Shown: in pieces, positions 6,331-24,660 of the stretch | How positions within the stretch are numbered: the first letter of the stretch is position 1 | Layout: each line of letters starts with the position of its first letter | IMG/VR virus record: IMGVR_UViG_2928611649_000001 | Span: 1-64,000 of that record | Length of the DNA: 64,000 nucleotides | Reading direction: 5' to 3' (one strand) | DNA from: a virus | The notes under the pieces: generated by a model | The model's database searches: none | What the model was told of the DNA's origin: nothing | Seen by the model: only the letters and a program-made list of their open reading frames with translations | Program-made: the position numbers and the translations under genes

Positions 6331-7513
6331 GGTCAGCCTTTTGTTGGGTTGGGGAAGGGCGGCGATAGGTTTTGGTTAGGCCGCCGTTGACGCTGTGGCC
6401 GCGCCGGAGTACTGCGCGCGCCAGCGCCGCCCGGTCGCTGCGGCTGCTGAGCGACTGTCCGAGCAGGCCGAAGTAGCTGTTGGCGGATGCGAACACCTCG
6501 TCGGCGTCGATGCGAAGCACGCGGTTGACGGCCTGGCGGACGGTGCGGCGCCGGGTGCGCGTGTTCCATGGCTTGATGACGTGGCCGACGAAGTCGATCC
6601 CGCGCGCGACCGGCTGCAAGATGGTCTTGGTCGGGTTCAGGTTCGCGTGCAGCACGCCGGGCAGGAAGGTGTTGATGTCCGTCAGCGCGGCGTTCAGCCA
6701 CTGCGGCGACTCGTGCAGCAGCACGAAGTCATCCACGTAGCGGATGTAGTGCTGGGCGCGCACGCGGTGCTTCACGTGCTGGTCCAGCGCATCGAGGTAG
6801 ACGTTCGCGAAGAACTGTGATGACAAATTCCCGATGGGAAGTCCGCGGTGGGCCGGGTGGTTGGCCAGCCGCTTGTGCGCCGGAACCAGCGCCAGCAACT
6901 CCGGCGCGCCGCGCAGTTCGAAGTTCTCACGAGGGTCATGGAACAGAATGGTTTCGGCCAAGGCCAGCCACCAGGGCTCCGTGATCCGCGCCGCCAGCTG
7001 GCCGTGCAGCACTGCCTTGTCGATGGCGACGAAGAAGTTGGCGAGGTCGCATTTCAGATACCAGACTGGCTTCGACCAGTTCTGGCTGATGCTGCGCACT
7101 TTCGCCTCCAGGCGGCCGGCGGCGTACAGCGTGCCACGGCCCGGGATGCATGCGCAGGTATCTGGAATGAATGAGGCGTAGAAGCGCGGCGCCACGTGGT
7201 TGTACAGCACATGGTGCACGATACGGTCGGGGAAGTCAGCAGCCCAGACCTCGCGCGGCTTGGGGCGGGTGACGATAAAGCAGACCGAGGTGCCGGGCTT
7301 GTACGAGCCGTCGATCAGTTCGTCGTACAGCTGGATCAGGTTGCGCTCAAGGTCCTGCTCGAACACGAGAGCGCTGGGGGTATTGCGCTTGTGGCGCCGG
7401 CAGTCGAAGTACGCGACTACCAGCTCCTCAAAAGAGAAGTCTGCATCGGGTTGATCTGCGGACGGCGCGCGCGGCGCCGGCATACGACTTGTGGTTGTTG
7501 TTCTGGTTGCCAT
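6323..7513 (-). CDS. Diversity-generating retroelement reverse transcriptase
   Basis: 396 aa. It has the YVDDFV catalytic box and LPIGNLSSQFFANVYL (the DGR-specific SQ in place of QG in motif 4). It lies directly downstream of avd and the TR. The annotated start overlaps the TR 3' end. Confidence 0.85.
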   Translation of the reverse strand: MATRTTTTSRMPAPRAPSADQPDADFSFEELVVAYFDCRRHKRNTPSALVFEQDLERNLIQLYDELIDGSYKPGTSVCFIVTRPKPREVWAADFPDRIVHHVLYNHVAPRFYASFIPDTCACIPGRGTLYAAGRLEAKVRSISQNWSKPVWYLKCDLANFFVAIDKAVLHGQLAARITEPWWLALAETILFHDPRENFELRGAPELLALVPAHKRLANHPAHRGLPIGNLSSQFFANVYLDALDQHVKHRVRAQHYIRYVDDFVLLHESPQWLNAALTDINTFLPGVLHANLNPTKTILQPVARGIDFVGHVIKPWNTRTRRRTVRQAVNRVLRIDADEVFASANSYFGLLGQSLSSRSDRAALARAVLRRGHSVNGGLTKTYRRPSPTQQKADHV

Positions 7514-7562
7514 TGTCGAAGTTCTGGTTCCAAGCGTTAGTCGGGTAGTCGGCGTGCTGCGT
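7454..7562 (-). repeat. DGR template repeat (TR), ~107-109 bp, AAC-rich on the coding strand
   Basis: The coding strand reads CAGCACGCCGACTACCCGACTAACGCTTGGAACCAGAACTTCGACAATGGCAACCAGAACAACAACCACAAGTCGTATGCCGGCGCCGCGCGCGCCGTCCGCAGAT. It matches three VRs, with mismatches almost exclusively at TR adenines. Confidence 0.85.
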
Positions 7563-7733
7563 CAATTCGTACTATCTACGTCGCCCCGGAGAAGGCTCTC
7601 GGCCGATCAGCGGGGTAACTGCGCCAGGCCTTCCCGAACACCGTCGGGCGGTTCCTGTGATGCGCGTGGCGGTGGCCTCGTGAGCCAGCGGTACGACCAG
7701 ATTAAAATTGCACAGACCTGAATGCCGTAGCGG

Positions 7734-8093
7734 TCAGGTAGCGGGCAACGATGCGGGCTTCTTCCCACGCCATCCATTGGCCTGCCGGCCGATGCTGCTG
7801 GTGATCGCGATTGCCGCGGCATACTGCGCAAGCGAGATCAGCTTCAGGTCCGTCGCCAGCCTGAACAGCAACTCCGTTACCTGGACGTGCTCGATGAGCT
7901 TGTTCAGGTAGGGCACCTTGTCGATCGCCACGTTTGCGCGATAGACGAGGGTGGAGAGCTCCAGGCATTCGGCGTTGATCTTCTGGCCGACCGTCGTTTT
8001 GAAATCTCGGCGCATGTTCTTGATGAGATTCATCGCCAGGAGCATCAGCTCGTAGGTCGCCTTGTAGATCGGCAGGTCTTTGTGGAGGGCCAT
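7734..8093 (-). CDS. avd: DGR accessory variability determinant (Avd)
   Basis: 119 aa, helical and basic at the C-terminus. Position is canonical: between the target gene/VR and the TR-RT. Confidence 0.7.
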   Translation of the reverse strand: MALHKDLPIYKATYELMLLAMNLIKNMRRDFKTTVGQKINAECLELSTLVYRANVAIDKVPYLNKLIEHVQVTELLFRLATDLKLISLAQYAAAIAITSSIGRQANGWRGKKPASLPAT

Positions 8094-8113
8094 GGGTTCC
8101 TTAAATTACTAAA

Positions 8114-8524
8114 TTACTGAATTGGCAATCTGCGGACGGCGCGCGCGGCGCCGGCATACGACTTGCGGAGGTAGTTCTGGTAGCCATCGTAGAAGTACTG
8201 GAGCCAAGCGTTAGTCGGGTAGTCGGCGTGCTGCTCGCAGGACCAGTAGTAACGTGGCTTGAAGTGCGACTTCAGGTTGGCGATCAGCAGGCTCTGCTGA
8301 CGACGAGTGGGCAGTACGCCGCCGTTCTTCTCGGCCCACGCCATCGACTTGTCCCAGTCCGCATCCAGCAACTCGCCCGGCAGCAGGAAGACATGCTCAT
8401 CTGGTGCGCCGTTCTCGCCCAGCAGCAGACCGGAGTAGGTCTCGCCCGGTTTCAGGTTCTCTACCAGAAACTGGCGCTTGCTCGCCGCCATCAGCGATTC
8501 GATTTCTGCGGTATTCGATTGCAT
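8114..8524 (-). CDS. DGR target protein 1 (C-type lectin / DUF1566-like fold), VR at its 3' end
   Basis: Start trimmed to MQSNTAEIESL, which has an AGGAGA RBS; the ORF track gives 8114..8713. The C-terminus LPTRRQQSLLIANL...YWSCEQHADYPTNAWLQYFYDGYQNYLRKSYAGAARAVRRLPIQ is encoded by VR1. Confidence 0.7.
   Translation of the reverse strand: MQSNTAEIESLMAASKRQFLVENLKPGETYSGLLLGENGAPDEHVFLLPGELLDADWDKSMAWAEKNGGVLPTRRQQSLLIANLKSHFKPRYYWSCEQHADYPTNAWLQYFYDGYQNYLRKSYAGAARAVRRLPIQ
8128..8234 (-). repeat. DGR variable repeat VR1
   Basis: 10 mismatches to TR. 9 are at TR adenines; 1 is a G-to-T (GAC to TAC). Confidence 0.8.
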
Positions 8525-8541
8525 TGCTTCTCCTTGGTGAT

Positions 8542-9003
8542 TTAGCCGCGTGGCGGCGATTCGTGAAATTCGACGCCCATCTGGCCGCCAAACGCGTGAA
8601 TCTGTTCCATGTACTGGGCGAAGCCCTTGACCGTCAGGTCGGTCGAACTGCCGATCAGCACCGGCTGGCCGCCCGGGTCGAAGTCCCACTTGCGGTACTT
8701 CTCGTCCTTGCACAGCTCCGGGTCATATTCATCCGGCAGGAACTGCTGCTTGAAGTACTCGTGCCAGATTTCGGCGCTGTACTGGCGCTCGTCGCTCCAG
8801 CACTGCTCGGCGATGTCCTTTAGCGGCCCAGCCCACATACGGGCATTCTGGTCAAGCTTCCGCGCCTTCACTTCCTCGCGCACCAGCAACTCCAGCGGGC
8901 GCTCAGCATCCAGCGGCACGTTGCGGAGCAGGGCGATTGCGCGATCAACCTGCTCCTGGCCGCGCAGCAGCAACTTGCGCTGCTCGAACTTCTGGCGGGT
9001 CAA
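8542..9003 (-). CDS. ninB: NinB/Orf-family recombination mediator
   Basis: LDQNARMWAGPLKDI and IHAFGGQMGVEF align with lambda NinB (LDQNRKLWA ... IQAFGTERGVKW). Confidence 0.7.
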   Translation of the reverse strand: MTRQKFEQRKLLLRGQEQVDRAIALLRNVPLDAERPLELLVREEVKARKLDQNARMWAGPLKDIAEQCWSDERQYSAEIWHEYFKQQFLPDEYDPELCKDEKYRKWDFDPGGQPVLIGSSTDLTVKGFAQYMEQIHAFGGQMGVEFHESPPRG

Positions 9004-9031
9004 GGCGGTACTCCCGCTGTGCTGTGCGCGG

Positions 9032-9661
9032 TCATGCTGGCACCGCCTCGGCCGCCGGCTGCTTGGCCGCGTCGTACTTCTCGATGCCCCAGGCTAGTGC
9101 GTAGCAGCACCAGACGATGCTGTGCGTGTACTCGGTCATGTCGTTCTCGAACAGATCGGTGAACGTCCAGCCATACGGGCGCTTCGGGTTGCTGCGCGGA
9201 TCGTGGCAGAAGTCGTAGGCAGCGTATTGAGCGCGGTCGCCGCCGTCCTCCAGCATGCGTAATACCTCATCGTCCACCGCTTCCCAAAGTTCACGGCGCC
9301 CAGCCTTGTCGAGTGCGCCGCTTTCCTTCGCGCTGCGCATCCAGCCGATGCGGTAATCATTGATGACGCGCTTGAACTTGGCCTCATCGAACTGCTTGAC
9401 CTTGCCTCCACCCCGATTGCCATCGACAGCGATCAGCTTCTCGGTCCAGTAGCCCAGGTTGATGCTCAGCGATCCATCAGCGCGGCGCGGCTTGCGGAAG
9501 AACTCGAACATGTCCGCCGTGCGCTCGAACACGTAGGTACCCATGTCGCCTGTGTAGCAGAGGTGGCCGGGCCAGGTGATCAGGTCGAAGTACTGGTTGC
9601 TCGTGCCCGGCTCCTTGAAGCGGACGTGGCGGCCCACACCGTCGTCGCGGATCACGATCAT
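9032..9661 (-). CDS. Hypothetical phage protein
   Basis: Start trimmed to MIVIRDDG. The upstream part of the track ORF is an Arg-rich GC artefact. Confidence 0.4.
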   Translation of the reverse strand: MIVIRDDGVGRHVRFKEPGTSNQYFDLITWPGHLCYTGDMGTYVFERTADMFEFFRKPRRADGSLSINLGYWTEKLIAVDGNRGGGKVKQFDEAKFKRVINDYRIGWMRSAKESGALDKAGRRELWEAVDDEVLRMLEDGGDRAQYAAYDFCHDPRSNPKRPYGWTFTDLFENDMTEYTHSIVWCCYALAWGIEKYDAAKQPAAEAVPA

Positions 9662-9711
9662 TTCGTGCTTGGCGACGTCGCCCAGGAACTGCTCTTCGGT
9701 GCAGGCGGCGC

Positions 9712-10437
9712 TCACGGTGCCACCGGCGCCAAGTCGGCCACGTCGATCACGATGCCACGGCAGTACGGCGTGCCGTCCTCGATGATCTCGAAGGTGGCAT
9801 GCGGCACGTCGGTATGGTAGGTCCAGCTGTAGCCCGGCTCGGCCGCCCACATCGCCTCGACCTTGCGGGTCGCCGGCTCGCGCGCGAAGTAGTCCTTGAG
9901 CTCTGCGTCCTCCTCGATGTTCTCGCGCTCCGGCAGCACGCCCTTGGCGTCGATCAGCGCGGTGCCGCCGCCGTAGCAATCGAACTCGCTGTTGGTCGCT
10001 CCTCGGAACTCCATCAGGTCGTCGCTGGCGCCGAAGATCACCAGCAGGCCGGCCGCTTTGGCCTGGCCCTGCTCGTCCTTCGTCAGGCCGAACGGATATT
10101 CGCGGCCGGACAGCGATGCAGCGAGCTGGTCGCGGTACGGGCGGTGTGTGGGCGCGGCGGCTACCGGCGCCGCCAGCGCCGCCGCATCCAACTTCACGAA
10201 CGGGAACAGATCCGGAAACTTCTTGATGCGCTGGATGAAGAACGAGCCCGCCGATTCGGCAGCCTGGAACTCGGCGAACATCGCGGCGTCGACGTTCTGG
10301 TAGTGGTAGGTGTCCACCACGCCGGTTTTCTTCGGGTGGAACTGGATGGCCAGCAGGTTCAGTTCTGGCGAGTGGCCGTAGGCCGCAAACTGCGAACTGT
10401 TGACCGGCTGCATGGTGATGGATGGGGTGGCGCTCAT
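9712..10437 (-). CDS. KTSC-domain-containing phage protein
   Basis: N-terminus KTGVVDTYHYQNVDAAMFAEFQAAESAGSFFIQRIK is KTSC-like. Confidence 0.45.
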   Translation of the reverse strand: MSATPSITMQPVNSSQFAAYGHSPELNLLAIQFHPKKTGVVDTYHYQNVDAAMFAEFQAAESAGSFFIQRIKKFPDLFPFVKLDAAALAAPVAAAPTHRPYRDQLAASLSGREYPFGLTKDEQGQAKAAGLLVIFGASDDLMEFRGATNSEFDCYGGGTALIDAKGVLPERENIEEDAELKDYFAREPATRKVEAMWAAEPGYSWTYHTDVPHATFEIIEDGTPYCRGIVIDVADLAPVAP

Positions 10438-10461
10438 GGTGATCTCCTGGTGGTGGGCGGA

Positions 10462-11919
10462 TTAGGCGGCGTACTTGACGCGGACAGTGTCGACGTGGCG
10501 TTGGATGGCAGCGCAGATGCGCGGGAAGTCGGCGTCGTGATACAACTTGGCGGCCCTGTCGGTGTCCGCTGGCGCGAAGCCGAGCGACAGCAGGCCGTCG
10601 GCGCTGATTGCCAGCGGAGCGATGCGCTCGTTGATCTGGCCGAGGCGCAGCGTGGGCGGCGTGTACTCGGCATCGACCACGTCATCAGCCGGGGCTACAT
10701 CAGCGAACAGGCCGGCGGACACTAAATCAGTGGCGAGGTCAGCCAGGCGGCCATGATCGGCCAGCGCTGCGGCCTGGCCATCGGCAACCACGTTCGCCGC
10801 TGCCGCGCTGGCGGCGCTCGCGTTCGCCGCGGCAATCGCTGCTTCGCGGGTGGCGGCCTGCTGCTGGCCGGCGGCGCGCTCGTTGGCTTGGCGCTCGGCG
10901 GTGATGGTGGCCTGCTGCGCTTCCATCTGGCGTTTCGTCTCGGCAGCGACGCGGGCCTGCTCAGTGGCTTCGCGCTCGGCTTGGGCTGCGGCCTGCTGGG
11001 TGGCCAGTTCGGCGCGCTGGCGGTCGATCTCAGCTTGCGCCAGACGATTGGCCTCGGCCTGGGCGTCAGCCTCAGCCTTCAGCTTTGCGGCTGCGGCCTC
11101 ACGTTCCCGCAGTGCTGCGGCTTCCTGTTCGGCGGCCAGCGCGGCCAGACGGTCAGCTTCGGATTTCTGCTCGGCGGCGACGCGGTCGGCCTCCACTTGT
11201 GTCAGGCGGGCACGTTCGGCGGCGGCTTCGCGCAACTGGGCCAACTCGGCGCGCTCGGCCGCGATGCGGGCCGCTTCTTCTTCGCTACCCAGCGCGGCGG
11301 CGCGGGCGGCAGCCAACTTGGTCATCACCTCGGTGCGCGCCGTCAGCGCTGCATCCAACATGGTGCCGAACGACTCGCCCGGCACGTCGGTTTCTAATTC
11401 GGCGATCATGGCGGCTATGTCGGCAGAGGACTTGCCGACGGCTTCCAGCGGCAGCTCGCGGATGGCGACGATGCGCAGGCGGATGCGCTCCTGGCGCTCG
11501 ACTTCGGCCTTCTTCAGGTCATCCTTGCGCTTCTCCTCGGCCTTGATGGCGGCGTCGAACTTGGCTTCGTACGGCAAGACTGCGGTTTTCAGCTCGGCGT
11601 ATGAGGTGTCCAGGAGCTTGCCGATTTCCAGAATCGGGGCCTTGCGGACTACACGGGCCTTCTCGCCAGCTACCCGCACATCGTCGCGGAAGGCGGCGCG
11701 GTACTTGACCGCGATCTCCATGCCGGCCGTGGTGCTGGCGTCCGGCGTGATCGTGTCGGCCTCGGCCTTCAGGATGGCGAACTTTTCGTTGAAGGGCTTG
11801 AAGACCTCGGCGACGTACTTGGCCGGGTCCAGGGTGATCAGCTGGCTGGTCGCCGGTACGACGCCGGATTGGGTTGCGACGGCGCCGACTGCTTCGTTTT
11901 CTGCGGGATGGTTGTTCAT
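10462..11919 (-). CDS. Coiled-coil phage protein (Ala/Glu/Gln-rich central region)
   Basis: 485 aa. Globular N- and C-terminal regions flank a ~200-aa AEQ-rich coiled coil. It is adjacent to the RecT/exonuclease module. Confidence 0.45.
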   Translation of the reverse strand: MNNHPAENEAVGAVATQSGVVPATSQLITLDPAKYVAEVFKPFNEKFAILKAEADTITPDASTTAGMEIAVKYRAAFRDDVRVAGEKARVVRKAPILEIGKLLDTSYAELKTAVLPYEAKFDAAIKAEEKRKDDLKKAEVERQERIRLRIVAIRELPLEAVGKSSADIAAMIAELETDVPGESFGTMLDAALTARTEVMTKLAAARAAALGSEEEAARIAAERAELAQLREAAAERARLTQVEADRVAAEQKSEADRLAALAAEQEAAALREREAAAAKLKAEADAQAEANRLAQAEIDRQRAELATQQAAAQAEREATEQARVAAETKRQMEAQQATITAERQANERAAGQQQAATREAAIAAANASAASAAAANVVADGQAAALADHGRLADLATDLVSAGLFADVAPADDVVDAEYTPPTLRLGQINERIAPLAISADGLLSLGFAPADTDRAAKLYHDADFPRICAAIQRHVDTVRVKYAA

Positions 11920-12686
11920 GCTGCTTCCTTCATTCGTAAGAGCGTTTCGTTGTAGGTAACCAATTTTTCAAACTCGGCCAGTTCTTCGACCATCTGGTCG
12001 ATGTACTCGTCGTCGCGCTGGAAGGTGCGCAGCCAGAGGTGCTTGTCGATGATTTCCAGGGCGGGGCAGTACAGGCAGAAGTCCCACCACCGGCGCCCGG
12101 TGATCCACATGCAGCCCTGCACCTGGTCCATGAACTCGCTGGCGTCGTTCTCGATGTATATCCGCTGCAGCCGCTCCGGTGAGATCAGGCACTTATATTC
12201 GCTGCCACCGTCGCGCCCGACCAGCCCGTCGGCGCTGGCGCCGAACAGTCGATCCTCGGTGATGACGAATCCGGCGCGCTCCACCATGTGACCACTGGCA
12301 ATCTCGTGTTCCCGGCGCGCCGCTGGCTCCAGTTCGTGGCCGCGCCGCATGGCGTAGGTTTCGAAGCTCTCATCCAGGGGCATGCCACTGATCCGCTCGA
12401 TGGCCAGGCGGAATGCGTAGGCCTTGGCTGCTTCCGAGAAATCGCCGACCGGCAGCCCCTCGATGGCGCGCTGAATACACTCGGCCTTCGGTGTTGCGCG
12501 GTAGCCGGCAATCTCACGTGCGTAGCCCTCGCTCATGCCTTGCCGGATCGCCGTGACGTACGCCTGCTGCTTTTCGTCCAGGCCGCCGGTACGCGAGCGG
12601 GCCACCACGAACATGCTGGCGGTGATCACGCCGGCGCGGGCCTGGTGCCATTCAGCTGAACCCTGGTCGCAGTTCAGGACGATCAT
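11916..12686 (-). CDS. YqaJ-type viral recombination exonuclease (PD-(D/E)xK)
   Basis: CDQGSAEWHQARAGVITASMF matches the YqaJ domain signature. Directly downstream of recT. Confidence 0.7.
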   Translation of the reverse strand: MIVLNCDQGSAEWHQARAGVITASMFVVARSRTGGLDEKQQAYVTAIRQGMSEGYAREIAGYRATPKAECIQRAIEGLPVGDFSEAAKAYAFRLAIERISGMPLDESFETYAMRRGHELEPAARREHEIASGHMVERAGFVITEDRLFGASADGLVGRDGGSEYKCLISPERLQRIYIENDASEFMDQVQGCMWITGRRWWDFCLYCPALEIIDKHLWLRTFQRDDEYIDQMVEELAEFEKLVTYNETLLRMKEAA

Positions 12687-13819
12687 TGGGCGGCTCCGGC
12701 GGCCTCGGCGCGCGCCTTCAGGGTTGGGTAGTGCTCAGCCAGGCCATCCTGCGTGGCCGGCGACAGGCGGCCCCATGCATCATTGAACAGGTCCAGCCCT
12801 TCGTCGGCCAGCGCGCTGAAGTCCGCCAAGATCGCTTGCATGTCCTCCGACAGTGGACGGGCGGCGCCGGCGGTTGGCTCGGCGTCGAAGGTGCGCGCTT
12901 GGTCGGCGGCGTTGGCGTCAGCCTTCCATCCGTCGTGGAATGCGGCCAGGGCCTTGCGGTTCGGCGTGCCGGCCTCGGTCCAGAATTTCTGGTATGCGGC
13001 GACGCCCTTGGAGGCGGCCATCTTTGCCTGCTTGATCAATTCATCTGATGCTTCTGGCGCTGGCGCGGCGCTGGCGATTTGTTTGGCTGCCGGCGTGATA
13101 TCGCGGATTTCCCGGTTGACTTCTTCCAACTCGTCAGGGGTGTAGACGCCCAGAATCACGTCCGGCGCATACAGGCGACTCCAGCGCTTGACCGCCAGAT
13201 ATCCCAGTTGCTGCTTCGGGTCGGTCGCCCACAACGGAGAGTTGCGCACGCTGGCCTGCACCAGCAGCAACTCCAGGTAGCGTGGCTCGGTCTCGCCGCG
13301 CAGGGTTGCCCACACGCGCACGCCGCAGCCGTCCTCGGCGCGCATGTCGTAGTCGGGCACACGGTACTGGTAGGCTTTTTTATAATCCTTGTCGCCGTAT
13401 TTACCCTTGGCTGGCGCGTCCATGACCTTGGTTTTGCCGATGATCTTTTCCCATGGGCCATACCACTCGTAATTGAAGCGATCGAGTGTGACGCCGCTGG
13501 CTTGAATCGCAGCATTCACCAGCTGCGCCTCGTAGCCCAGCGTGCCGTTGACCAGGTGGGTTTTCTGCGCCACGGCGTATGGATTCATGCGCCATTGCAT
13601 TGCCTGCATGACGATGGCGGCGCAGTCGGCTGGACTGCCTTTCAAGTGGTCTGGTATGGTCGTGCGCGCCTTGGCCATGTGGTCGCCCAGACGCATAATG
13701 CTGTCCATGCTGGCGCCGTCGAGGATCAGCGACGCGCTGCTGGTGGCGACCATCGGCATATCGGCTGCCGGCGGCGCCAACTGCATGGCGGACTGCGATT
13801 CTTTGGTGACTGCATTCAT
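12683..13819 (-). CDS. recT: RecT-family ssDNA annealing recombinase
   Basis: QAMQWRMNPYAVAQKTHLVNGTLGYEAQL is a RecT core motif. Paired with the YqaJ exonuclease. Confidence 0.75.
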   Translation of the reverse strand: MNAVTKESQSAMQLAPPAADMPMVATSSASLILDGASMDSIMRLGDHMAKARTTIPDHLKGSPADCAAIVMQAMQWRMNPYAVAQKTHLVNGTLGYEAQLVNAAIQASGVTLDRFNYEWYGPWEKIIGKTKVMDAPAKGKYGDKDYKKAYQYRVPDYDMRAEDGCGVRVWATLRGETEPRYLELLLVQASVRNSPLWATDPKQQLGYLAVKRWSRLYAPDVILGVYTPDELEEVNREIRDITPAAKQIASAAPAPEASDELIKQAKMAASKGVAAYQKFWTEAGTPNRKALAAFHDGWKADANAADQARTFDAEPTAGAARPLSEDMQAILADFSALADEGLDLFNDAWGRLSPATQDGLAEHYPTLKARAEAAGAAQ

Positions 13820-14641: not shown

Positions 14642-15579
14642 GCGGCGCTTTCCACTTCGCGAGGCGCATGCACGATTGGGAATGTGCGGCCGACGCTCGG
14701 GCGGGCCAGTTCCGGGTTGTTGCGCATCCAATCCTGTACAAACCACAGTTGACCGCAACCGCCGCCGATGTCGTCCTGGCCGGCCGGATCAAAGCAGCGG
14801 GTCGAGTAGCCGTAGGCGCCGAGCTTGCCCATGAAGTCGGTGGCCAGTTGGCGCTGGCGCACGTTCGCCGCCGCAACCGATTCATCGCGCTCACAGACCA
14901 CGGAGATGGTCGCCTGCCAGACATCCGGATCGAACATCGCATAGATGCGGTCGGCGTCGGCCTGAACCGTGTTGCCTTCGTGCGCGCGGTAGTTGAAGAA
15001 TGGCTGGCGCCCAGTAGCTACGAACCAGGCTTCGCCGGCCGCCGCGATCTGATGCAGGTTCAGCTTTGCCTTGAACGGCACCAGTGCGTCACGCGCAGCA
15101 TCGGTGCTTTCGTGCACGGAGAACTGGAGGCCAACAGCAGGCACCTCGACCGACAGTGCATTCACGCGCTCATAGTCCACGGCCGGCGCCGAGGTGCTGA
15201 TCAACAGCGAGAAGCGCGGGTACAACGCATGCAGCTGGCGGATGGCGTCGGCCAGGTGACCGAAGTTCAGCAGCGGCTCACCCATCGACATGAACATGAT
15301 CTGGCATTTCTCAACCTTGGCTGGGTCGATGTCGCGGTCGGCGAACAGGTGCTGAACCTGGCCAACGATCTCGTCGGCGGTCAGACTGCGCACGAACGCA
15401 TCGCCAGCGCCACAGAAACGGCAGCCGACAGGACAGCCGCTTTGCGTCGAGCAGCAGATGACGGTGCGTGCCTCGTAGGTCGGGTATTTGTACAGCACGG
15501 CTTCGGCGACGGCATTGCCGAAATCGAACACGTACTTGCTGACGTTCTGGTCGGTGGAATCGATGCGCTTCACTGCCAT
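14638..15579 (-). CDS. Radical SAM enzyme, RlmN/Cfr-like RNA methyltransferase family
   Basis: CSTQSGCPVGCRFC is a CX3CX2C cluster. IMFMSMGEPLLN matches the RlmN (V/I)FMGMGEPL block. The C-terminal GGGCGQL matches the RlmN second catalytic Cys (AACGQL). Start trimmed to MAVKRIDS with a GGAGA RBS. Confidence 0.65.
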   Translation of the reverse strand: MAVKRIDSTDQNVSKYVFDFGNAVAEAVLYKYPTYEARTVICCSTQSGCPVGCRFCGAGDAFVRSLTADEIVGQVQHLFADRDIDPAKVEKCQIMFMSMGEPLLNFGHLADAIRQLHALYPRFSLLISTSAPAVDYERVNALSVEVPAVGLQFSVHESTDAARDALVPFKAKLNLHQIAAAGEAWFVATGRQPFFNYRAHEGNTVQADADRIYAMFDPDVWQATISVVCERDESVAAANVRQRQLATDFMGKLGAYGYSTRCFDPAGQDDIGGGCGQLWFVQDWMRNNPELARPSVGRTFPIVHAPREVESAA

Positions 15580-16470: not shown

Positions 16471-16501
16471 ACTGGCTCCGGATCAGTTTTAAATTACTGA
16501 A

Positions 16502-17134
16502 TTACTGAATTGGCAATCTGCGGACGGCGCGCGCGGCGCCGGCATACGACTTGTGGTCGTTGCCCTGGCCGCCATTGTCGAAGACCTGGCCCCAAGCGCC
16601 AGCCGGGTAGTCGGCGTGCTGCGTGCTCGACCAGTACCACTCGTCGTCATCGAAGGCATCAGCGCCGCCGGCGCGGAAATTCTCGACCGTGGTCTGCATC
16701 GGTGATTCATCGGTGTAGGCGGTGCCCACTGGCAGGCTGCCCGGGTTCACGCCATCGATGCCATCGGCGTAGTTCTCGCGGTCGGTCGGTTTCAGGTGGC
16801 GGTATTGCAGCTCCTGCTGGTCGCGCGCCGGGATTGACCAGTCGCTGAAGCCGTTAGTCGTCAGCGCCAGGACGGCCAGCGCCAGTTCGCTGCCGGCGGC
16901 GGCCATGGCTTGGGTGTTCGACAGGCCGTCGGTGCGGCTCATGGCGCCAGCAACCAGGTCCAGCGACTCGTTCCATTTGCCGCGCAGCTCACCGGTAGCG
17001 CCGGCCGTGACGTTCGCGAACATCTGCCCGTTCTCGATCGTGATGCCGGTGAAGTAGCCGCCTTCGAGCGGTGCGCCGATGGCGGGGAGGGCGGAAGCTG
17101 CGAAGACTGGTGCTGCGGCGAGTGCTTGGTTCAT
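16502..17134 (-). CDS. DGR target protein 2 (DUF1566/C-type-lectin-like), VR at its 3' end
   Basis: 210 aa. WSIPARDQQELQY...EWYWSSTQHADYPAGAWGQVFDNGGQGNDHKSYAGAARAVRRLPIQ shares the C-terminal scaffold with target 1. Confidence 0.65.
   Translation of the reverse strand: MNQALAAAPVFAASALPAIGAPLEGGYFTGITIENGQMFANVTAGATGELRGKWNESLDLVAGAMSRTDGLSNTQAMAAAGSELALAVLALTTNGFSDWSIPARDQQELQYRHLKPTDRENYADGIDGVNPGSLPVGTAYTDESPMQTTVENFRAGGADAFDDDEWYWSSTQHADYPAGAWGQVFDNGGQGNDHKSYAGAARAVRRLPIQ
16516..16624 (-). repeat. DGR variable repeat VR2 (remote, ~9 kb from the TR)
   Basis: 12 mismatches to TR, all at TR adenines. Confidence 0.8.
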
Positions 17135-17856: not shown

Positions 17857-17885
17857 AAATGCCTCGACTGGCGAGGCTGGAAGGA
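17857..17885 (-). terminator. Rho-independent terminator (GCCTCGCCAGTCGAGGC + T8), minus strand
   Basis: Perfect 6-bp stem followed by ATTTTTTTTG on the minus strand. Confidence 0.5.
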
Positions 17886-17891
17886 GTTGAT

Positions 17892-18116: not shown

Positions 18117-18195
18117 TATTCATCGCAGAGGGTTTGACGATGACAATCGCAAAGGTCACCCCTTGCTCTTTGATAACCGCACCTTGAAATTTCAT
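17935..18195 (-). CDS. Hypothetical protein (MKFQGAVIKEQGVTFAIVIVKPSAM...). Conflicts with the overlapping antisense ORF.
   Basis: The minus-strand terminator lies just downstream. Low GC3. Confidence 0.3.
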   Translation of the reverse strand: MKFQGAVIKEQGVTFAIVIVKPSAMNTSSDSDRTRADAQPLFPGLSVVLASQDGRGRFQYQGRTDLVNFLASIDASRIPWKEYTFS

Positions 18196-18807
18196 GTTTT
18201 TCTTTCGTAGTTTTGGAATGCGCCCGCCGCCGGGAAGCAATCGGGCGCGTTTCATTGTAGCGAAATTGACAAGCTAAAATATCACCAATAGTCATTGGCT
18301 CCGCCGTAGCCGCACCGACTGCAGACGTAAAAAAAGCCAGCGCTGTGCGAGCCTGAGAAGGGGTTGTAAACCGTGGGGAAGAAGAGTAAATTCCGTCAGT
18401 GATGGCGGGCCGGCGCTAACCGACCCGCTTCCCACTAGGAAAGAATTCGATCAACGAGCACGTGCAAAATTGCTGCAAGCGCCCAGAGATTGATTTCCAC
18501 CTTTACTGCTTTGATCGTCAGTTTAAACATGGCAGAAGCCCTGTTTGCGCTGGCGGTACCGCCAACTGGTTGAGGGTTGGCTTATTTTTTAAAGTGCGGT
18601 TGCTTGCACTTCGCCTTGGCGCGCTGCAGCGTGCTTCGGCACCATGCTAGCGAAGTGATCCGCCCGCATGGCTCAGCTCAGTGGGTTCGATTATCCGGAA
18701 TCCACCGGGCTCTACCACCACGTCACCTTCCGCACCTTGCTGGATGCGGACATGGCTTGCGACCATGCTCTTTCGGCCCGCGCATCGGATGGCGCGCGGG
18801 CTATTCT

Positions 18808-19029
18808 TTACCCCAACTCAGCGTCGTCGCCCGCCAGACCGCCGCGCGTGCCGCCCTTGGCCAGCAGCTCGCCATCGACAAGGCCGCCCTTCGTGCCACT
18901 GGTGGCTAGCAGTTCATCGTCGACCAAGCCGCCAGTCCTTTTCGTGCCTCCGTTATCCGCCAGTTTTTTACCGTCAGGCTTGGCGACCGCGGGCGATTTC
19001 TTTGCTGGGACGTGGGATTTTTTGATCAT
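18808..19029 (-). CDS. Small protein with three KGGLVDxELLA tandem repeats
   Basis: GGAG RBS. 73 aa. Confidence 0.4.
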   Translation of the reverse strand: MIKKSHVPAKKSPAVAKPDGKKLADNGGTKRTGGLVDDELLATSGTKGGLVDGELLAKGGTRGGLAGDDAELG

Positions 19030-19147
19030 AGGCCACTCCTGCTAGTTGGATTCAAGGGGGAGTTTGTGCATTGCTCAGCTGCTGAACCCGCCAGCCAAGC
19101 GCTTGTGTAGCTGGCCGTGGCGCACCGGATGGTGCGCGGGCTATTTC

Positions 19148-19705
19148 TTATTTGGGACAATTTTCACGGATAAAGTCTACGGATTCTCTGAACCCCTTCA
19201 GGTCGATGTCCTCGCCCAGCATGCCGCCAATAATTGTTCCAATTTGAACTCGAAGTCTTTTCCCGTCATACAGCTGGTCAAAGTAAGGCTCCAGGATTAA
19301 CGAGCCCAAATCGCTTTCACTTTCGGTAGCCCTCTGCTGCCCTTGAGCAGGTTCATCATTGATCCGAACAGTGTAGTATTTCACTCCACCTCGGCCTCTC
19401 ATCGAAATGAAGAAATATCGCAACCCTCCCTGAATGTTCCAATCGCCCTTATACAACGCGACACACGACTTCTTGTCCGTCATTGCGTTGATGCTTTGGT
19501 CTACTGTCCAGAATCCGGAACGAAAGGCGGTCTTGGCTGTTGGAGTTGCCGCTTTGTTACTGGTAGAAGGCTTTTCTGTTGCAGCGCCGGTGTCATAACA
19601 AGCCAAGCGAGCCTTGTCAGCTTTAATGGATGCACAGTCTGCGCCAAAAGCGAGCACTGGCAGTGCGACGGTCGCCGTCAGAGTTAAGCGGAGAATGGGA
19701 TTCAT
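19148..19705 (-). CDS. Secreted protein (Sec signal peptide MNPILRLTLTATVALPVLAFGADC)
   Basis: 185 aa with an N-terminal signal peptide. Located in the low-GC island. Confidence 0.5.
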   Translation of the reverse strand: MNPILRLTLTATVALPVLAFGADCASIKADKARLACYDTGAATEKPSTSNKAATPTAKTAFRSGFWTVDQSINAMTDKKSCVALYKGDWNIQGGLRYFFISMRGRGGVKYYTVRINDEPAQGQQRATESESDLGSLILEPYFDQLYDGKRLRVQIGTIIGGMLGEDIDLKGFRESVDFIRENCPK

Positions 19706-19785
19706 CGAGTTCCTTGAGGCGGCAGATGCGTGCCGGGTCGCCCTGCAATTATAGGAAAATTGACAACTGGAAATCTATCGAATTG

Positions 19786-20478
19786 TCACGATCGATTTAC
19801 CATGTCCAGCACGGACTCATCGCGGCCTGCGGTGATCTCGGCGCACCTGGTGCGCAGCTTGTGTAGGACGGCCGGACCGATGCCTTTGAACGCGAGCAAC
19901 TGCTCGTCGCTGGCTTGGTCGATTCGCGCGGGCGTGTCGAGAGCCACATCCCACATCGCCAAAGCCGCATGATGGGGCAGGGTGGGCACGGTCGCCAAGA
20001 AGGTAGGGAAATAATGTTCGCATATTTCATCGACATAGTGTCCACTCAGTCCGCTGTATTTTGCCCATTCCGGCCGAGTGACTTCCGCACGCAATAAGCG
20101 GAGTCGCTCCCTTGCTGGAAGTCTCAACTCCACTACTTTGCGTAGAGCGATGAGAAATTGGGGATAGATCAGATCATAGCCATTTCTAATTGCCATCTCG
20201 AACGTCTGCCACCCAATGCCAGGATCATCCATATCTATGCCGATTTCACGCAGCGTCTTGAGCTTAGTCGACCAGTGGCCTTGATGTGAATTATCTGCAA
20301 ATTGCGGCGGGCAATAATTCAGGTCGTAGTGGCGGTACCCATGCCATTGCAGTACCGCTAGCGGGGTATCGAAGTGCAATGCGGCACGGAACTCAACGCC
20401 ATTGCATATTTCTGAATTGAGCCGTATTCCCTCAGCGCCGCCAGGCGAAATCTTGCTCCAGCATCTCCAAACCTTCAC
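19786..20478 (-). CDS. Hypothetical protein with a C-terminal helix-hairpin-helix (LLAFKGIGPAVLHKL)
   Basis: 230 aa. Confidence 0.4.
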   Translation of the reverse strand: MKVWRCWSKISPGGAEGIRLNSEICNGVEFRAALHFDTPLAVLQWHGYRHYDLNYCPPQFADNSHQGHWSTKLKTLREIGIDMDDPGIGWQTFEMAIRNGYDLIYPQFLIALRKVVELRLPARERLRLLRAEVTRPEWAKYSGLSGHYVDEICEHYFPTFLATVPTLPHHAALAMWDVALDTPARIDQASDEQLLAFKGIGPAVLHKLRTRCAEITAGRDESVLDMVNRS

Positions 20479-20496
20479 TCAACCCTCCGCGCAGCG

Positions 20497-20739
20497 TTAC
20501 TTGCTGGCCAGGTCGTGCATCTCCTTGACCAATGCTTTTGTCTCCGCACTGTCGCGCGCTAAAACGCGTAGCAAGTCGTAGATCGGGCCTGCTTGGAGCC
20601 GGTCGATAATCTCCGCGTTGAGCGTGCGGCCGTTGTACTCGGCGATCTCCATCAACTTGGCATGCAATTCTCTCGGGATTCGCAGCGATGTCTTAATGTA
20701 GTCGTCTTGCGTCGGCTTCTTGATGGGCGATTTGTTCAT
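20497..20739 (-). CDS. Arc/MetJ-type ribbon-helix-helix DNA-binding protein
   Basis: KTSLRIPRELHAKLMEIAEYNGRTLNAEIIDRL is a typical RHH. Confidence 0.5.
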   Translation of the reverse strand: MNKSPIKKPTQDDYIKTSLRIPRELHAKLMEIAEYNGRTLNAEIIDRLQAGPIYDLLRVLARDSAETKALVKEMHDLASK

Positions 20740-21049
20740 CGCCCAATTGTTTCTGACCCGCCAAGTTTTAGGCTAAAAACTCCTTCATAATGAAGGGTGA
20801 TTGTGAGAATCTGTTACTTTTCATTTCACAAGTAAAGGTTAAAAACCCCTCTACTTTTGATATGCAATCAAGGCAAACCTGTAATATAGTTAACACACTG
20901 TAAACATTTGATAGCAGAGTATTATGGAAAACTTACCCCGGATAGTTGCTGCATACGAGAAGATGGATAAGCAGGCACGCGACAAGTATGTATTGCGTAT
21001 GGAGCAGTCCGCCATCCGATACCCGATGCAGGTCCAGCAGCGTGCAAAT

Positions 21050-21436
21050 CTACGACTTGTTACTAATGAGAACCGGTGACTGAATTAGGCGCTCTGTTGC
21101 CTCGGCCTCATCTAAGATATCCCTCTGCCCCCGTTCACTAGTCGTTCGGAAGAGAGTTACCAAGTGCATTTCTTCTTCGTTCAACCAAGCGTAGAAAGGC
21201 GCGCGCGATGCGGGCGACTCGCGTGGCGGCTCAACTGGGCGCACATACTCCACGCCATCCGGCGTATCGAGATAACCGGCGCCCATCTTATATTTTTCCT
21301 CTAAGCGACGAGCGACCTTCTCCCCGAAGGAGCCATCCCCGCGCAATTGCGAAAAAAGACTCTTCTCTTGTTTTGGTATGCCGTTGTCGGCAACCCACTT
21401 GGCAAGGTTCGCTCTGCGAGTGTCAGTGATGTTCAT
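21050..21436 (-). CDS. CI-like phage repressor (HTH, no S24 peptidase domain)
   Basis: ANLAKWV..KSLFSQLRG..FGEKVARRLEEKYKMGAGYLD is a lambda/P22-type repressor HTH. Divergent from the cro-like gene. Confidence 0.55.
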   Translation of the reverse strand: MNITDTRRANLAKWVADNGIPKQEKSLFSQLRGDGSFGEKVARRLEEKYKMGAGYLDTPDGVEYVRPVEPPRESPASRAPFYAWLNEEEMHLVTLFRTTSERGQRDILDEAEATERLIQSPVLISNKS

Positions 21437-21507
21437 GCGCGCAGTTTAGTGTTTATTAAAGTAGTAATCACTTGACAGGTGGTTTAGCATTCACTAAACT
21501 CGCCTGC
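21437..21507. promoter_or_regulatory. Immunity-region divergent promoter/operator region with GTTTAG half-sites
   Basis: gtttagtg at ~21446. gtttagCATTCActaaac is an 18-bp palindrome at ~21489-21506. agtttagtg and cactaaact form an inverted pair. Confidence 0.45.
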
Positions 21508-21783
21508 ATGGACCTGAAAAAATACATCTCCGCCGAGCGCGGACGCGCCAAATCGCTTGCTGCCCACCTGGGCATCTCGCCTTCATTCCTTTCGCAAATC
21601 GCGGCAGGAACAGCGCCAGCTTCGCCATCCAGGTGCTTGGAGATCGAGAAGGGCACCGGCGGCCAAGTCACACGCAAGGACCTGCGCGAAGACTGGCGCG
21701 AAATCTGGCCCGAGCTCAAGCAATCCAACGCCAATCCCCAGCGCGCCACCACCCCGCGCAAGCCTGCGAAGGAAGTCGCATGA
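21508..21783 (+). CDS. Cro/YdaS-like HTH regulator
   Basis: LAAHLGISPSFLSQIAAG...CLEIEKGTGGQVTRKDLRED matches the YdaS/Cro family. Confidence 0.55.
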   Translation: MDLKKYISAERGRAKSLAAHLGISPSFLSQIAAGTAPASPSRCLEIEKGTGGQVTRKDLREDWREIWPELKQSNANPQRATTPRKPAKEVA

Positions 21784-21992
21784 AAACCGCTACCCAAGAT
21801 CACTTTTTGTGCGTCGTCATAGTCGCCGCTATCGCGGAAGCACGCCGCGCAGGCGATGACGTGAAAGTCGCCAGCGAGGCTGCCGCCAAGGCGTATGTGG
21901 CTGGACTAGTAGCGGCGGATGCGCCCGGCGAAAACAGCGGCGAGCGGGTTATCAGCGCTACGGGCCAGGTGGAATATCGCCCTCCGTCGTGA
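21780..21992 (+). CDS. Hypothetical protein
   Basis: 70 aa. ATGA overlaps the cro-like stop. Confidence 0.35.
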   Translation: MKTATQDHFLCVVIVAAIAEARRAGDDVKVASEAAAKAYVAGLVAADAPGENSGERVISATGQVEYRPPS

Positions 21993-22265
21993 GTAGTTTT
22001 TGCAGTTCCGCAATGGCTGTTCGAATCGGTATCTCCTGCAGCTTGGTGGAGTCCATTGGACCCTCAAGTGTCATTGGCCCCGTTATGTCGATTCTCACGT
22101 TGAGCCAGCCGAAGTCGTATGTGCCCGAAGTTTTGACTTTCCCGTTGATGAAAGTCGCAGTCATTTCTTTTTTGCAGTCCATGGGAGATCCCTTTGCAAG
22201 TTGTTGTGTGAGAACTGCAACTGTAACGCATTGGAATCTCCCGCCCATATTTTGGAAAGCACCAC

Positions 22266-22604
22266 ATGAGCAACCACGCCAATCTCGCCGCTGCACTGCT
22301 TGCTGCCTTCAGCCTCGACACAGACAAGGCCGACCCTGTCGCCATCGCCGATGCGCTGGCAACCGTGCTTGTCGCGTTCGCCGACCTGGTGCGCGGCCCA
22401 GCGCCGGTGTTTGCTGAGCTGGCCGCCGTCGAGCTGGCGCCGCTGCCAGGCCAGGCCGAACTGATCGCCGAGGTGCGCAATCTGATCTGCGAAATCCGCG
22501 CAGACCGCCAGGCGTTTGCCGAAGAGCGCAAGACCAACAACCGGCTGTTCCGTTCCTTCGTCGGCGGCATGCCAGGCGCCGAACACAGCGGCCTGCCGGG
22601 CTGA
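22266..22604 (+). CDS. Hypothetical protein
   Basis: 112-aa ORF. Confidence 0.3.
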   Translation: MSNHANLAAALLAAFSLDTDKADPVAIADALATVLVAFADLVRGPAPVFAELAAVELAPLPGQAELIAEVRNLICEIRADRQAFAEERKTNNRLFRSFVGGMPGAEHSGLPG

Positions 22605-22686
22605 CGCCGCTCACCGAATTCCGTATCACTGCCGGCCAGACCGCCGGCCTAAATCCTGAAATCCGCATCACTAAAGGAGCTGCATC

Positions 22687-22974
22687 ATGAACCACACCAT
22701 CAACCGCAAGCCCGACCCCCGCCTGCATCCCGTCAAGGTCTACCTTGGCGAGGAGGAGTTGGCGACCCTGCAAAGCCACTGCCATGCGATCGACACCACT
22801 TGCAGCGCTTTCCTCCGCAAGGTCGGCCTTCGTATCGCGTCAGCACACCAGCAGGTTATCCGCTACCCCGGGCGCCGTGAAGGTCCGAGTGCAGGCCTGG
22901 GCAGGGCCTTCTCGTTCCCGGGGCAGGGCGCCCGGCGCGTGCAGCGCGGCGCGTTGCGGCCGATGCGTTCCTGA
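22687..22974 (+). CDS. Ribbon-helix-helix-like regulator (VYLGEEELATLQSHCHAIDTTCSAFLRKVG)
   Basis: GGAG RBS. MobC/TraJ-like RHH pattern. Confidence 0.4.
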   Translation: MNHTINRKPDPRLHPVKVYLGEEELATLQSHCHAIDTTCSAFLRKVGLRIASAHQQVIRYPGRREGPSAGLGRAFSFPGQGARRVQRGALRPMRS

Positions 22975-23020
22975 AATAACCCGATCCGTACCGACCGGGC
23001 CACCAATCGATAGGGCTTCC

Positions 23021-23752
23021 ATGCGCCACCTGATTTCCACCGCAGCACTGATCATGACCAGCCGTGAAATTTCTGATCTTGTTGAATCACGCCACGACAA
23101 CGTGAAAATTGCCATTGAGCGGCTTGCTCACCGTGGCGTGATTCAACTTCCTGCAATGCAGGACGTCAAAAACGGCCAAGGCCAGACGGTGACTGAATAC
23201 CACATCGGAAAGCGCGACAGCTACGTCATCGTCGCGCAGTTATCGCCGGAGTTCACAGCGCGGCTAGTCGATCGCTGGCAGGAACTGGAGGCGGCGGTCA
23301 TCGCGCCGGCGGCGCCGGCCGAGCTGTCGCGCATGGAGTTGATCGAGCTGGCCATGGCCGCCGAGCGTGAGCGCCTGATGCTGGTGGCGCAGGTCGCCGC
23401 CGACGCGCCAAAGGTTGCCTTCGCTGAAGCGGTGCGCAACGTCGATGGCCTGTGCAGCTTGGAGAAGATCGCCAAGACGCTGGGCTGGGGCCGCAACCGC
23501 TTCATCGCGGCGCTGAAGGAGGCTAAGGTTTTGCAGGCCTCGCGTATCCCGTACCAGAAATACATCGAGCGCGGCTACTTCGAAGTAGTCGAGCAAACGC
23601 CGTGGGAGGACTCGAAGGGCGATTCGCACGCGTCGTTCACCACGATGGTCACCGGCGCCGGCCAGGTCTGGCTGGCGAAGAACTTCCAGCATGAGCGCCA
23701 CGTTGCGGCGCAGATGGCCGCCATCGGTACCACGCTCGTCGCCGCCCACTGA
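23021..23752 (+). CDS. Antirepressor (Rha N-terminal domain + KilA-C domain)
   Basis: LIMTSREISDLVESRHDNVKIAIERL is Rha-like. DGLCSLEKIAKTLGWGRNRFIAALKEAKVL is KilAC-like. Confidence 0.65.
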   Translation: MRHLISTAALIMTSREISDLVESRHDNVKIAIERLAHRGVIQLPAMQDVKNGQGQTVTEYHIGKRDSYVIVAQLSPEFTARLVDRWQELEAAVIAPAAPAELSRMELIELAMAAERERLMLVAQVAADAPKVAFAEAVRNVDGLCSLEKIAKTLGWGRNRFIAALKEAKVLQASRIPYQKYIERGYFEVVEQTPWEDSKGDSHASFTTMVTGAGQVWLAKNFQHERHVAAQMAAIGTTLVAAH

Positions 23753-23757
23753 AAGCA

Positions 23758-24053
23758 TGAACATGACAGATTTCAACCGCATCCCGGTTGGGCCGCTGCT
23801 TTCCCTGGCCCAGCTCTCGATCTCCCTGCACAAGGCGCAGAACGCCGTGGCTGTTGCTCGGTTCGACTATCTCGACCGCCTGAAGAAGTTCGAGCGCAAG
23901 CGCGGCGCTGTCGGCCGGCTCGACAAGAACAACGCCGCGCACGCCGCCGCCATCGCGTACACCGCTGATGAATACGAGGCGCTGCTGGCCGCGCGGCGCA
24001 ACGCCTACAACATCAAGCGCCGCTGGCAGAACGCCTGCCGCAAGTTCAACTGA
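23758..24053 (+). CDS. Hypothetical protein
   Basis: 98 aa. Confidence 0.35.
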
Positions 24054-24075
24054 AGCACCCAACCCGGAGACACGC

Positions 24076-24591
24076 ATGGATCACGCAGACGTACTACACA
24101 TCATCGAAGACCGCACCTTCACCGCGAAGATGGGCGAGCGCACCATCACCGGCCTGATGGTCGAAAGCACCTGGAACGGGCTGACGAACTACACCGCCGC
24201 CAACGGTGCGAACCTGGTGGTGCTGGACGCCGAGCGGCGCGTGGTCACCGGCAGCGCCGCGCTGCTGGTCCACTTGGGCCTGGGCGAGCCGCAGATCGGC
24301 GCCGAGTTCAGCGGCGGCATCTACGCCGGCCTGACCGAGGTTGACGGCAAGCCGGCGCGCCTGATCATGTTGCTTCCGCACGCCGTCGATGTGTCGTGGG
24401 ATACCGCGATGGACTGGGCGAAGCTGCAAGGCGGCCACCTGCCTACGCGCGCCGAGCAGCGCACTCTCATCGAGAACGTGAAGAGTCACTTTGAGCCCCG
24501 TTGGTATTGGTCCTGCGACCAGCACGCCGACTTCCCGTCTTACGCTTGGCTCCAGCTCTTCGGCAATGGCTACCAGGTCAGCTACCACTAG
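24076..24591 (+). CDS. DGR target protein 3 (DUF1566/C-type-lectin-like), truncated by a TAG stop inside VR3
   Basis: Start at MDHADVLHII with a GGAGA RBS. C-terminus LPTRAEQRTLIENVKSHFEPRWYWSCDQHADFPSYAWLQLFGNGYQVSYH*. The downstream frame continues SYAGAARAVRRLPI. Confidence 0.65.
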   Translation: MDHADVLHIIEDRTFTAKMGERTITGLMVESTWNGLTNYTAANGANLVVLDAERRVVTGSAALLVHLGLGEPQIGAEFSGGIYAGLTEVDGKPARLIMLLPHAVDVSWDTAMDWAKLQGGHLPTRAEQRTLIENVKSHFEPRWYWSCDQHADFPSYAWLQLFGNGYQVSYH

Positions 24592-24625
24592 TCGTATGCC
24601 GGCGCCGCGCGCGCCGTCCGCAGAT
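24520..24625 (+). repeat. DGR variable repeat VR3 (remote, ~17 kb from the TR, opposite strand)
   Basis: About 14 mismatches to TR, all at TR adenines, including AAG to TAG (Lys to stop). Confidence 0.8.
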
Positions 24626-24660
24626 TGCCAATTTAATCATTCAGTAATTTAGAGGACAAG

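Follow-up and report, generated by a model that had tools for sequence, protein, structure and literature searches.

Can a single template repeat diversify several genes of one prophage, even when two of them lie far from it and one is read from the other strand? The question is raised by a diversity-generating retroelement (DGR) in the first 64,000 nucleotides of the IMG/VR virus record IMGVR_UViG_2928611649_000001 (positions 1 to 64,000; this whole stretch is hereafter called the window), which from its gene content appears to be part of a lambdoid prophage of the soil bacterium Duganella violaceipulchra. The product of the target gene nearest to the cassette (target 1) is identical to a protein of this species annotated at NCBI as 'DUF1566 domain-containing protein'. 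An original prediction, made from the letters of the window, had proposed one template repeat (TR) serving three variable repeats (VRs), of which two would be remote and one would be read from the other strand, and on this arrangement the repeat search and the alignment described below agree. We read the locus as a typical DGR whose one TR diversifies three lectin-fold targets, and put the probability of this reading at about 0.88; that the DGR is of a standard kind and has edited all three targets can be proposed with high confidence from sequence comparison.

The repeat search, covering 6-26 kb of the window, recovered four in-register copies, three of them direct (7427-7574, 8101-8248 and 16489-16636) and one inverted (24502-24651), in whose alignment some 107 nt agree throughout save for scattered positions. 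The 28-nt 3' end of the TR, GCCGGCGCCGCGCGCGCCGTCCGCAGAT, has exactly four mismatch-free occurrences in the 64 kb, with 0.00 expected (100 shuffles). The first of the four copies is taken as the TR because it is rich in AAC codons and preceded, in the target frame, by a stop codon just upstream; the other three close open reading frames (ORFs). Mismatches were counted by ungapped comparison over the 107-nt TR core with its 30 adenines (Table 1). Summed over VR1, VR2 and VR3, 35 of 36 fall at TR adenines, and the excess over non-adenine positions is significant in each repeat (Fisher test, p = 3e-5, 3e-8 and 1.5e-8, respectively); an extra G>C at the 5' boundary of VR3 was assigned outside the VR. 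The gene coordinates, the VR distances and the mismatch counts of VR2 and VR3 in the original prediction were thus recovered, and both repeats align to the TR without gaps over the core. Its statement that all differences lie at TR adenines stands except for a single position in VR1, and the changes in amino acids, which it had placed in about 14 codons, are confined to 13.

Table 1. Coordinates of the DGR, its targets and neighbouring genes in the window, and of corresponding stop alleles in related loci
Feature	Position	Strand	Details
TR	7454-7560	-	107 nt, 30 A; AAC-codon-rich; outside any target ORF
VR1	8128-8234	-	10 mismatches to TR: 9 at A, one G>T
VR2	16516-16622	-	9.06 kb from TR; 12 mismatches, all at TR A
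VR3	24520-24625	+	17.06 kb from TR, opposite strand; 14 mismatches, all at TR A
VR1 3' flank, initiation of mutagenic homing (IMH)-like, TGCCAATTCAGTAATTTAGTAATTTA	8102-8127	-	contains stop codon
VR2 3' flank, VR-specific	16490-16515	-	motif search
VR3 3' flank, VR-specific	24626-24651	+	motif with 3 mismatches; conserved in BJB475 orthologue
DGR reverse transcriptase	6323-7513	-	RVT_1 E=7e-14; phrog_1423 E=7e-116
Avd accessory protein	7734-8093	-	119 aa; phrog_3206 'Avd protein of DGR' E=7e-28; PF22296 bAvd E=1.6e-9
RT-15 RNA (Rfam RF03018)	7560-7750	-	163.3 bits against a gathering threshold of 82; full-length match 1-192
Target 1	8114-8524	-	136 aa; predicted minimal DUF1566/C-type-lectin protein with N-terminal helix; identical to WP_217942752.1
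Target 2	16502-17134	-	210 aa; predicted long DUF1566 subtype with insertion; Lcl_C E=8e-7; phrog_4245 E=7e-29
Target 3	24076-24591	+	171 aa as encoded; ATG 24076 preceded by GGAGA; TAG at 24589-24591
AAG-to-TAG allele, window	24589-24591	+	independent
AAG-to-TAG allele, locus L005	about 14981-14983		independent
AAG-to-TAG allele, locus L010			independent
Integrase	1-1110	-	prophage map
RdgC-FtsK-gamma	6330-5152	-	next after reverse transcriptase
NinB	9003-8542	-	upstream neighbour of target 1
Terminase	41.6 kb		prophage map
Tape-measure gene	56.5-62.7 kb		prophage map

The four copies have in common a 24-nt stretch free of adenine, and beyond it the VRs continue into an AT-rich element that the TR does not have: the motif ATTCAGTAATTYAGTAATTTA follows the three VRs only (0 expected by chance), and unrelated sequence follows the TR. 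This VR flank, which carries a stop codon, extends into the ribosome-binding site of the next gene, and its motif is loosely conserved after the VRs, and absent after the TRs, of the related elements surveyed below.

The genes around the TR are those of a DGR cassette, with the minus-strand order NinB, target 1, Avd, a gap of 190 nt, TR, reverse transcriptase (RT) and RdgC-FtsK-gamma. The RT contains the catalytic YVDD and the string LPIGNLSSQ, in which IGNLSSQ conforms to IGxxxSQ, presumably the signature of DGR-type RTs. Its DNA is 68-72% identical to that of RTs from DGR-carrying phages, and its nearest phage relatives are RTs of DGR cassettes; on these comparisons it would belong to the DGR clade. 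Both candidate starts of the RT, ATG 7513 and ATG 7483, fall within the TR, and the RT ORF thus shares its 5' end with the template; in the prophage of Duganella sp. BJB475 the orthologue was annotated as starting at the counterpart of ATG 7483. The match of Avd to PF22296 (38.6 bits) is slightly below the cutoff of 40. The gap between Avd and the TR is filled by an RT-15 RNA that ends on the first base of the TR, a feature that the original prediction did not mention, and an RNA of this family occupies the same position in four related DGRs (L001, L002, L004 and L005). Presumably it belongs to the DGR RNA. The family was described among 19 motifs near RT genes in a study that showed RT-10 to be the BPP-1 spacer and guessed that others are DGR-related (Weinberg et al., 2017; PMC5737381). 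Since the structured RNA is here 5' of the TR and the BPP-1 spacer is 3' of it, the site at which complementary DNA (cDNA) synthesis is primed may differ.

Evidence that all three targets have received TR sequence comes from the BJB475 prophage, which has the same layout, with a target 2 of 210 aa and an intact target 3 of 186 aa (P0058) on the other strand after Ant. Its TR differs from that of the window at core positions 6 (C/T), 90 (G/C) and 97 (G/A), and at these positions all three VRs of either prophage bear the base of their own TR. Orthologous VRs otherwise differ almost exclusively at TR-A positions (15 of 18, 12 of 14 and 14 of 17 differences); elsewhere they differ only at the three TR-marker sites, at a G/T site of VR1 and at a boundary site of VR3. 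The VR flanks are nearly identical in the two prophages. The mirroring of the TR markers in all VRs fits repeated TR-to-VR copying and argues against VR2 and VR3 being relics, and the transferred marker at position 97, only 10 nt from the end of the repeat, indicates that copying covers nearly the whole GC-rich end. Judged by these markers, transfer has reached every target in at least one lineage since the two prophages split.

DGRs with several targets had been called uncommon in the original prediction, which does not hold for this phage lineage. In each of the five relatives studied closely a single TR is accompanied by three VRs, and 182 of the 186 mismatches lie at TR adenines; this composition is also seen in prophages of Janthinobacterium fluminis and Collimonas pratensis. 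IMG/VR holds 263 relatives of target 1. The survey comprised 62 related loci with a recognisable TR, drawn from IMG/VR, related prophages, the Burkholderia cenocepacia phage Magia and the window, with 10 kb fetched on either side. One VR per TR was found in 7 loci, two in 34, three in 19 and four in 2, so that at least two are present in 55 of the 62, and 1513 of 1535 mismatches lie at TR adenines. Same-strand VRs are upstream of the TR in 137 of 137 cases (median distance 1.1 kb, maximum 9.6 kb); the only opposite-strand VR among 140 is VR3 of the window. By these counts the three-target layout is normal for the lineage, and the element is thus real but not new; only the opposite-strand target and the nonsense allele discussed below are unusual.

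The changes at template adenines across the lineage are about 52% A>G, 34% A>T and 14% C. VR2 of the window has A>G in 11 of its 12 changes, yielding several Gly codons, which is a moderate excess over this spectrum. An in-frame stop occurs in 3 of the 140 VRs, in each case by an AAG-to-TAG change that truncates the target (Table 1). AAG codons of the TR are altered at only 8% and 2% of their two adenines in the lineage VRs, as against 70% and 48% in AAC codons; the rarity of AAG changes fits selection for lysine, a context effect on misincorporation, or both.

Some other loci deserve mention. In Massilia endophytica (CP088952.1; L006, 10001-10411) the gene that directly follows a CI-like repressor encodes a 136-aa homologue of target 1, with a VR-like 3' end and an AT-rich flank; within 10 kb on either side neither RT nor Avd nor RT-15 RNA was found, and there is no DGR nearby. 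The exact 36-nt VR end had no match in the genome-contig and viral-contig collections. A scan of genome contigs with a 16-mer from the repeat end gave, among the matches listed, mostly single chance matches in GC-rich genomes and few true multi-copy loci, the 8-kb stretches being too short to hold distant or opposite-strand targets. One of the loci seen, in Janthinobacterium sp. TND4EL3 (L132, NZ_FTMV01000002.1, 2478-6986, minus strand), has five same-strand copies of this 16-nt end within 4.5 kb, probably one TR with four VRs.

Among the closest described systems is that of phage Magia (NC_070954), whose RT and Avd are of the same lineage (about 69% DNA identity over 1.8 kb). Like the Duganella prophage, Magia has an RT-15 RNA beside the TR and a single TR with three VRs, each with 8-15 mismatches that are all at adenines; its targets are lectin-fold proteins of 120-154 aa in the early region of a temperate phage, one of them 7 kb off. 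Its record labels gp47 and gp57 'possible DGR target, contains IMH-like region', and the accompanying paper (Microbiol Resour Announc 2021; PMC7883833) names two targets, gp46 not being recognised. Small leaderless lectin-fold targets, which the original prediction had brought forward, are thus borne out here, but the kind was already present in the annotation and paper of Magia. Magia differs in being a myovirus with its three targets on a single strand, whereas those of the Duganella prophage are spread across 17 kb and both early operons; in addition, its TR has CAG in place of the Duganella AAG, so that adenine mutagenesis there cannot yield the stop.

Other known systems share parts of the design. 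Targets of the DUF1566-type CLec2 category 'd' (DUF1566/DUF823/Fib_succ_major), such as LdtA of Legionella pneumophila, about half of which are short proteins with DUF1566 only (Wu et al., 2018; PMC5758913), resemble those of Duganella in having the VR in a C-terminal C-type-lectin domain of DUF1566 type, but LdtA carries an export signal and is a lipoprotein of the cell surface, and the Duganella targets lack lipobox and leader. The same study describes non-adjacent targets inside one prophage; it found non-adjacent targets in 45 of 372 DGRs, the phage-associated ones within 50 kb; of phages with more than one DGR target little is known (Baykov et al., 2023). Bordetella phage BPP-1 has the same order of target, Avd, TR and RT, adenine-specific mutagenesis, a GC-rich 3' repeat end and a TR flank unlike the VR flank. 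It differs in its single tail-fibre target, Mtd, with an Mtd-type lectin fold, and in the place of its structured RNA (RT-10, the spacer, 3' of the TR; PMC5737381); the start of the RT ORF inside the TR and the lack of a GC hairpin after the VRs also set the Duganella element apart. Finally, the DGR of Treponema denticola, with TvpA and remote targets, likewise serves several dispersed targets from one TR, but it is chromosomal and acts on lipoproteins with an FGE-sulfatase-type lectin fold up to hundreds of kb away.

The three targets of the window score 23.2, 29.8 and 17.6 bits against PF07603 (Lcl_C), all below the cutoff of 34.9. They are nevertheless treated as divergent DUF1566/Lcl_C members, because the family profile matches the solved C-terminal domain of Lcl (E=6e-6), many close homologues carry a precomputed PF07603 match, and the fold search agrees. 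The prophages of BJB475, Janthinobacterium and Collimonas contain orthologues of target 2. Target 1 as modelled by AlphaFold (predicted local distance difference test score, pLDDT, 95.7; alignment of 57 sequences) has a helix at residues 5-23 followed by a compact alpha/beta domain. In Foldseek searches its best solved match was 8q4e (the Lcl C-terminal domain of Legionella), C-type lectins and intimin came next, and the best viral matches were DUF1566 proteins; a literature search on 'HbP1', the name given to 8q4e by its depositor, returned nothing relevant. The variable residues of target 1 (102-121) fall in the model on strands 105-110 and 116-120 and the adjoining loops, and the approximately 13 variable codons would accordingly form the last beta-strands and loops, the usual ligand-binding face of C-type lectins. 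The small C-type-lectin or DUF1566-like targets without signal peptides of the original prediction therefore find support both in the predicted structure and in the sequence scan with orthologue comparison, in which none of the three showed a lipobox, a transmembrane segment or a hydrophobic leader that is conserved. Each holds at most one Cys. A signal peptide was considered for target 2, whose N-terminus is Ala-rich (Kyte-Doolittle 1.65), and rejected, as there is no charged n-region and the stretch is not conserved in orthologues.

Target 3 carries the nonsense allele, likewise absent from the original prediction: the TR codon AAG has become TAG in VR3 by an A>T at a TR adenine. The intact form of 186 aa would end at TAA 24634-24636, so that the last 15 residues are lost, and SYAGAARAVRRLPI, which had been listed as part of a scaffold common to the targets, is present in the DNA at 24592-24633 but untranslated. 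The 171-aa product is recorded from two assemblies of D. violaceipulchra, which argues against a sequencing error. The stop removes the last two strands of the fold, including residues invariant or nearly invariant in the family, and the truncated protein is, to judge by the model, probably inactive. For the N-terminal 86 residues of target 3 no relatives were detected by homology search, so this domain offers no clue to function.

Following the established DGR mechanism, RT and Avd would copy an RNA with RT-15 and the TR into cDNA and insert bases at random wherever the template has an adenine, and this cDNA would replace the homologous 107-nt segment that closes a target gene on its 3' side. 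To be replaceable, a gene would need the GC-rich repeat end followed by the VR-specific AT-rich flank. Three genes answer this description: target 1 beside the cassette, target 2, which is 9 kb away but belongs to the same operon, and target 3, which is 17 kb distant and encoded on the other strand. Target 3 is probably off until it is re-homed.

Several observations weigh against parts of this reading. The sole non-adenine mismatch in VR1 turns GAC into TAC. The role of the VR flank in target recognition (homing) is assumed, and the three flanks, folded as DNA, showed no hairpin beyond that of shuffled sequence (z -0.15 to -1.3). Targets oriented along the direction of replication have been reported to be edited by DGRs 7- to 44-fold better than those oriented against it (2026; PMC12875486), and by analogy one of the two target orientations in the Duganella prophage would have to be disfavoured. 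The TAG of target 3 could signal decay rather than cycling, and the timing and location of the target proteins are deduced solely from gene position and sequence. Lastly, related DUF1566 domains cap tail fibres elsewhere (phrog_4245, a profile of 583 positions), and BFVD matches include a 594-aa S74 protein and a 1417-aa tail fibre, so that a role on the virion or as an adhesin stays a serious alternative.

On that alternative, the DGR would work as described, but its targets would be adhesins, displayed on the virion as accessory receptor-binding or decoration proteins or released at lysis, that vary host range as in BPP-1. Viral DGR targets are mostly tail proteins in surveys (Roux et al., 2021; PMC8144416), the proteins capped by DUF1566 domains in other phages are long and tail-fibre-like, and the N-terminal helix of target 1, together with fold matches to the neck and lectin domain of trimeric collectins, would suit such a use. 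However, the three genes share early operons with recombination and regulatory genes, and 17-33 kb separate them from those for terminase and tail; their place in the early or recombination part, with RdgC, NinB, exonuclease, RecT and Ant as neighbours, is as originally described. The same early placement recurs in the Magia, Janthinobacterium and Collimonas phages, and no attachment domain could be recognised in the three proteins. We regard the adhesin role as possible but doubtful. In its place we suggest, with low confidence, that the leaderless targets are cytoplasmic, early-lytic variable binders directed against changeable factors of the host or of rival phages, not receptor-binding proteins of the tail, because in every relative their genes belong to early operons, and because they lack export signals and consist of a single domain. 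The more far-reaching proposal that these early lectin-fold proteins form an intracellular binder repertoire re-randomised by the phage, for instance against host defence or rival phages, seems to us unlikely.

It is also conceivable that the adjacent VR1 is the sole live target, and that VR2 and VR3 are unedited relics of duplicated genes, with target 3 on its way to becoming a pseudogene. The stop in target 3 with the loss of two strands would be in keeping with this, as would its distance and orientation, an arrangement seen in 1 of 140 lineage VRs, and the strong dependence of editing efficiency on orientation (PMC12875486). Relics, however, would not be expected to carry the three TR-specific substitutions, as VR2 and VR3 do in both Duganella prophages, nor to differ between prophages almost solely at TR-A positions; both have also kept the VR-specific 3' flank. 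The stop itself, an A>T at a TR adenine, is of the type expected of homing and recurs independently in two other loci. We consider this explanation very improbable. Homogenisation of a paralogous family by homologous recombination or gene conversion without reverse transcription, for which RecT, exonuclease, NinB and RdgC are encoded beside the repeats, can practically be dismissed, since it does not confine differences to the adenines of one copy, as observed here and in the lineage, and since the adenine-rich copy is the sole one outside a target ORF, between Avd with RT-15 and a DGR-type RT.

In the wider gene map, family and PHROG searches place RdgC, the DGR, NinB, exonuclease, RecT and target 2 in a leftward early operon, and Ant/Rha, target 3, methyltransferases, NinG and helicase in a rightward one, in which target 3 follows Ant. 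Among the products of the latter are a DNA methyltransferase of 798 aa (27221-29617, plus strand) and a helicase of 879 aa with a methyltransferase-like region (32405-35044, plus strand). A regulatory region of lower GC content lies at approximately 17-22 kb of the window and holds a pair of 41-nt direct repeats, 71% identical and each with a TTGACA (18254-18294 and 19748-19788, plus strand), which could be promoters or operators. Two 1-kb segments have a GC content of 0.488 as compared with 0.62 for the window: 20001-21000, in the immunity region, and 51001-52000, which interrupts the structural genes and may be a moron. Two tRNA genes, tRNA-Ser(GCT) and tRNA-Gly(TCC), are located at 39289-39455 (plus strand), just upstream of the packaging genes. 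A promoter and terminator scan near targets 2 and 3 gave counts near chance (6 against 2.9 and 14 against 10.1); a promoter-like site (17456-17427, minus strand) and a terminator-like site (17877-17861, minus strand) upstream of target 2 are hints only.

Since non-adjacent, multi-target DGRs with lectin-fold targets in a single prophage have already been documented, the element by itself adds little. Its value is that of a clean natural example, in which sister prophages show TR markers copied into targets of both orientations; this complements the 2026 laboratory result on replication direction (PMC12875486), the orientation of target 3 not being shown to be adaptive. Of modest interest are the opposite-strand target with its transfer, the nonsense allele made by the DGR, the RT-15 RNA 5' of the TR and the family of early-operon targets. 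The last of these points to a large unstudied class, the 263 IMG/VR relatives, of minimal leaderless DUF1566 proteins encoded in early operons, usually in two to four DGR-edited copies. If these proteins did form an intracellular repertoire of binders, paralogues placed in both early operons and orientations would be edited at different rates, in line with the replication-direction effect, the AAG codon of the TR would allow individual paralogues to be silenced and reactivated by the element, and the phage RecT, NinB and RdgC encoded beside the cassette might assist cDNA integration. Should the targets indeed act inside the cell, the biology of DGRs would extend beyond surface recognition.

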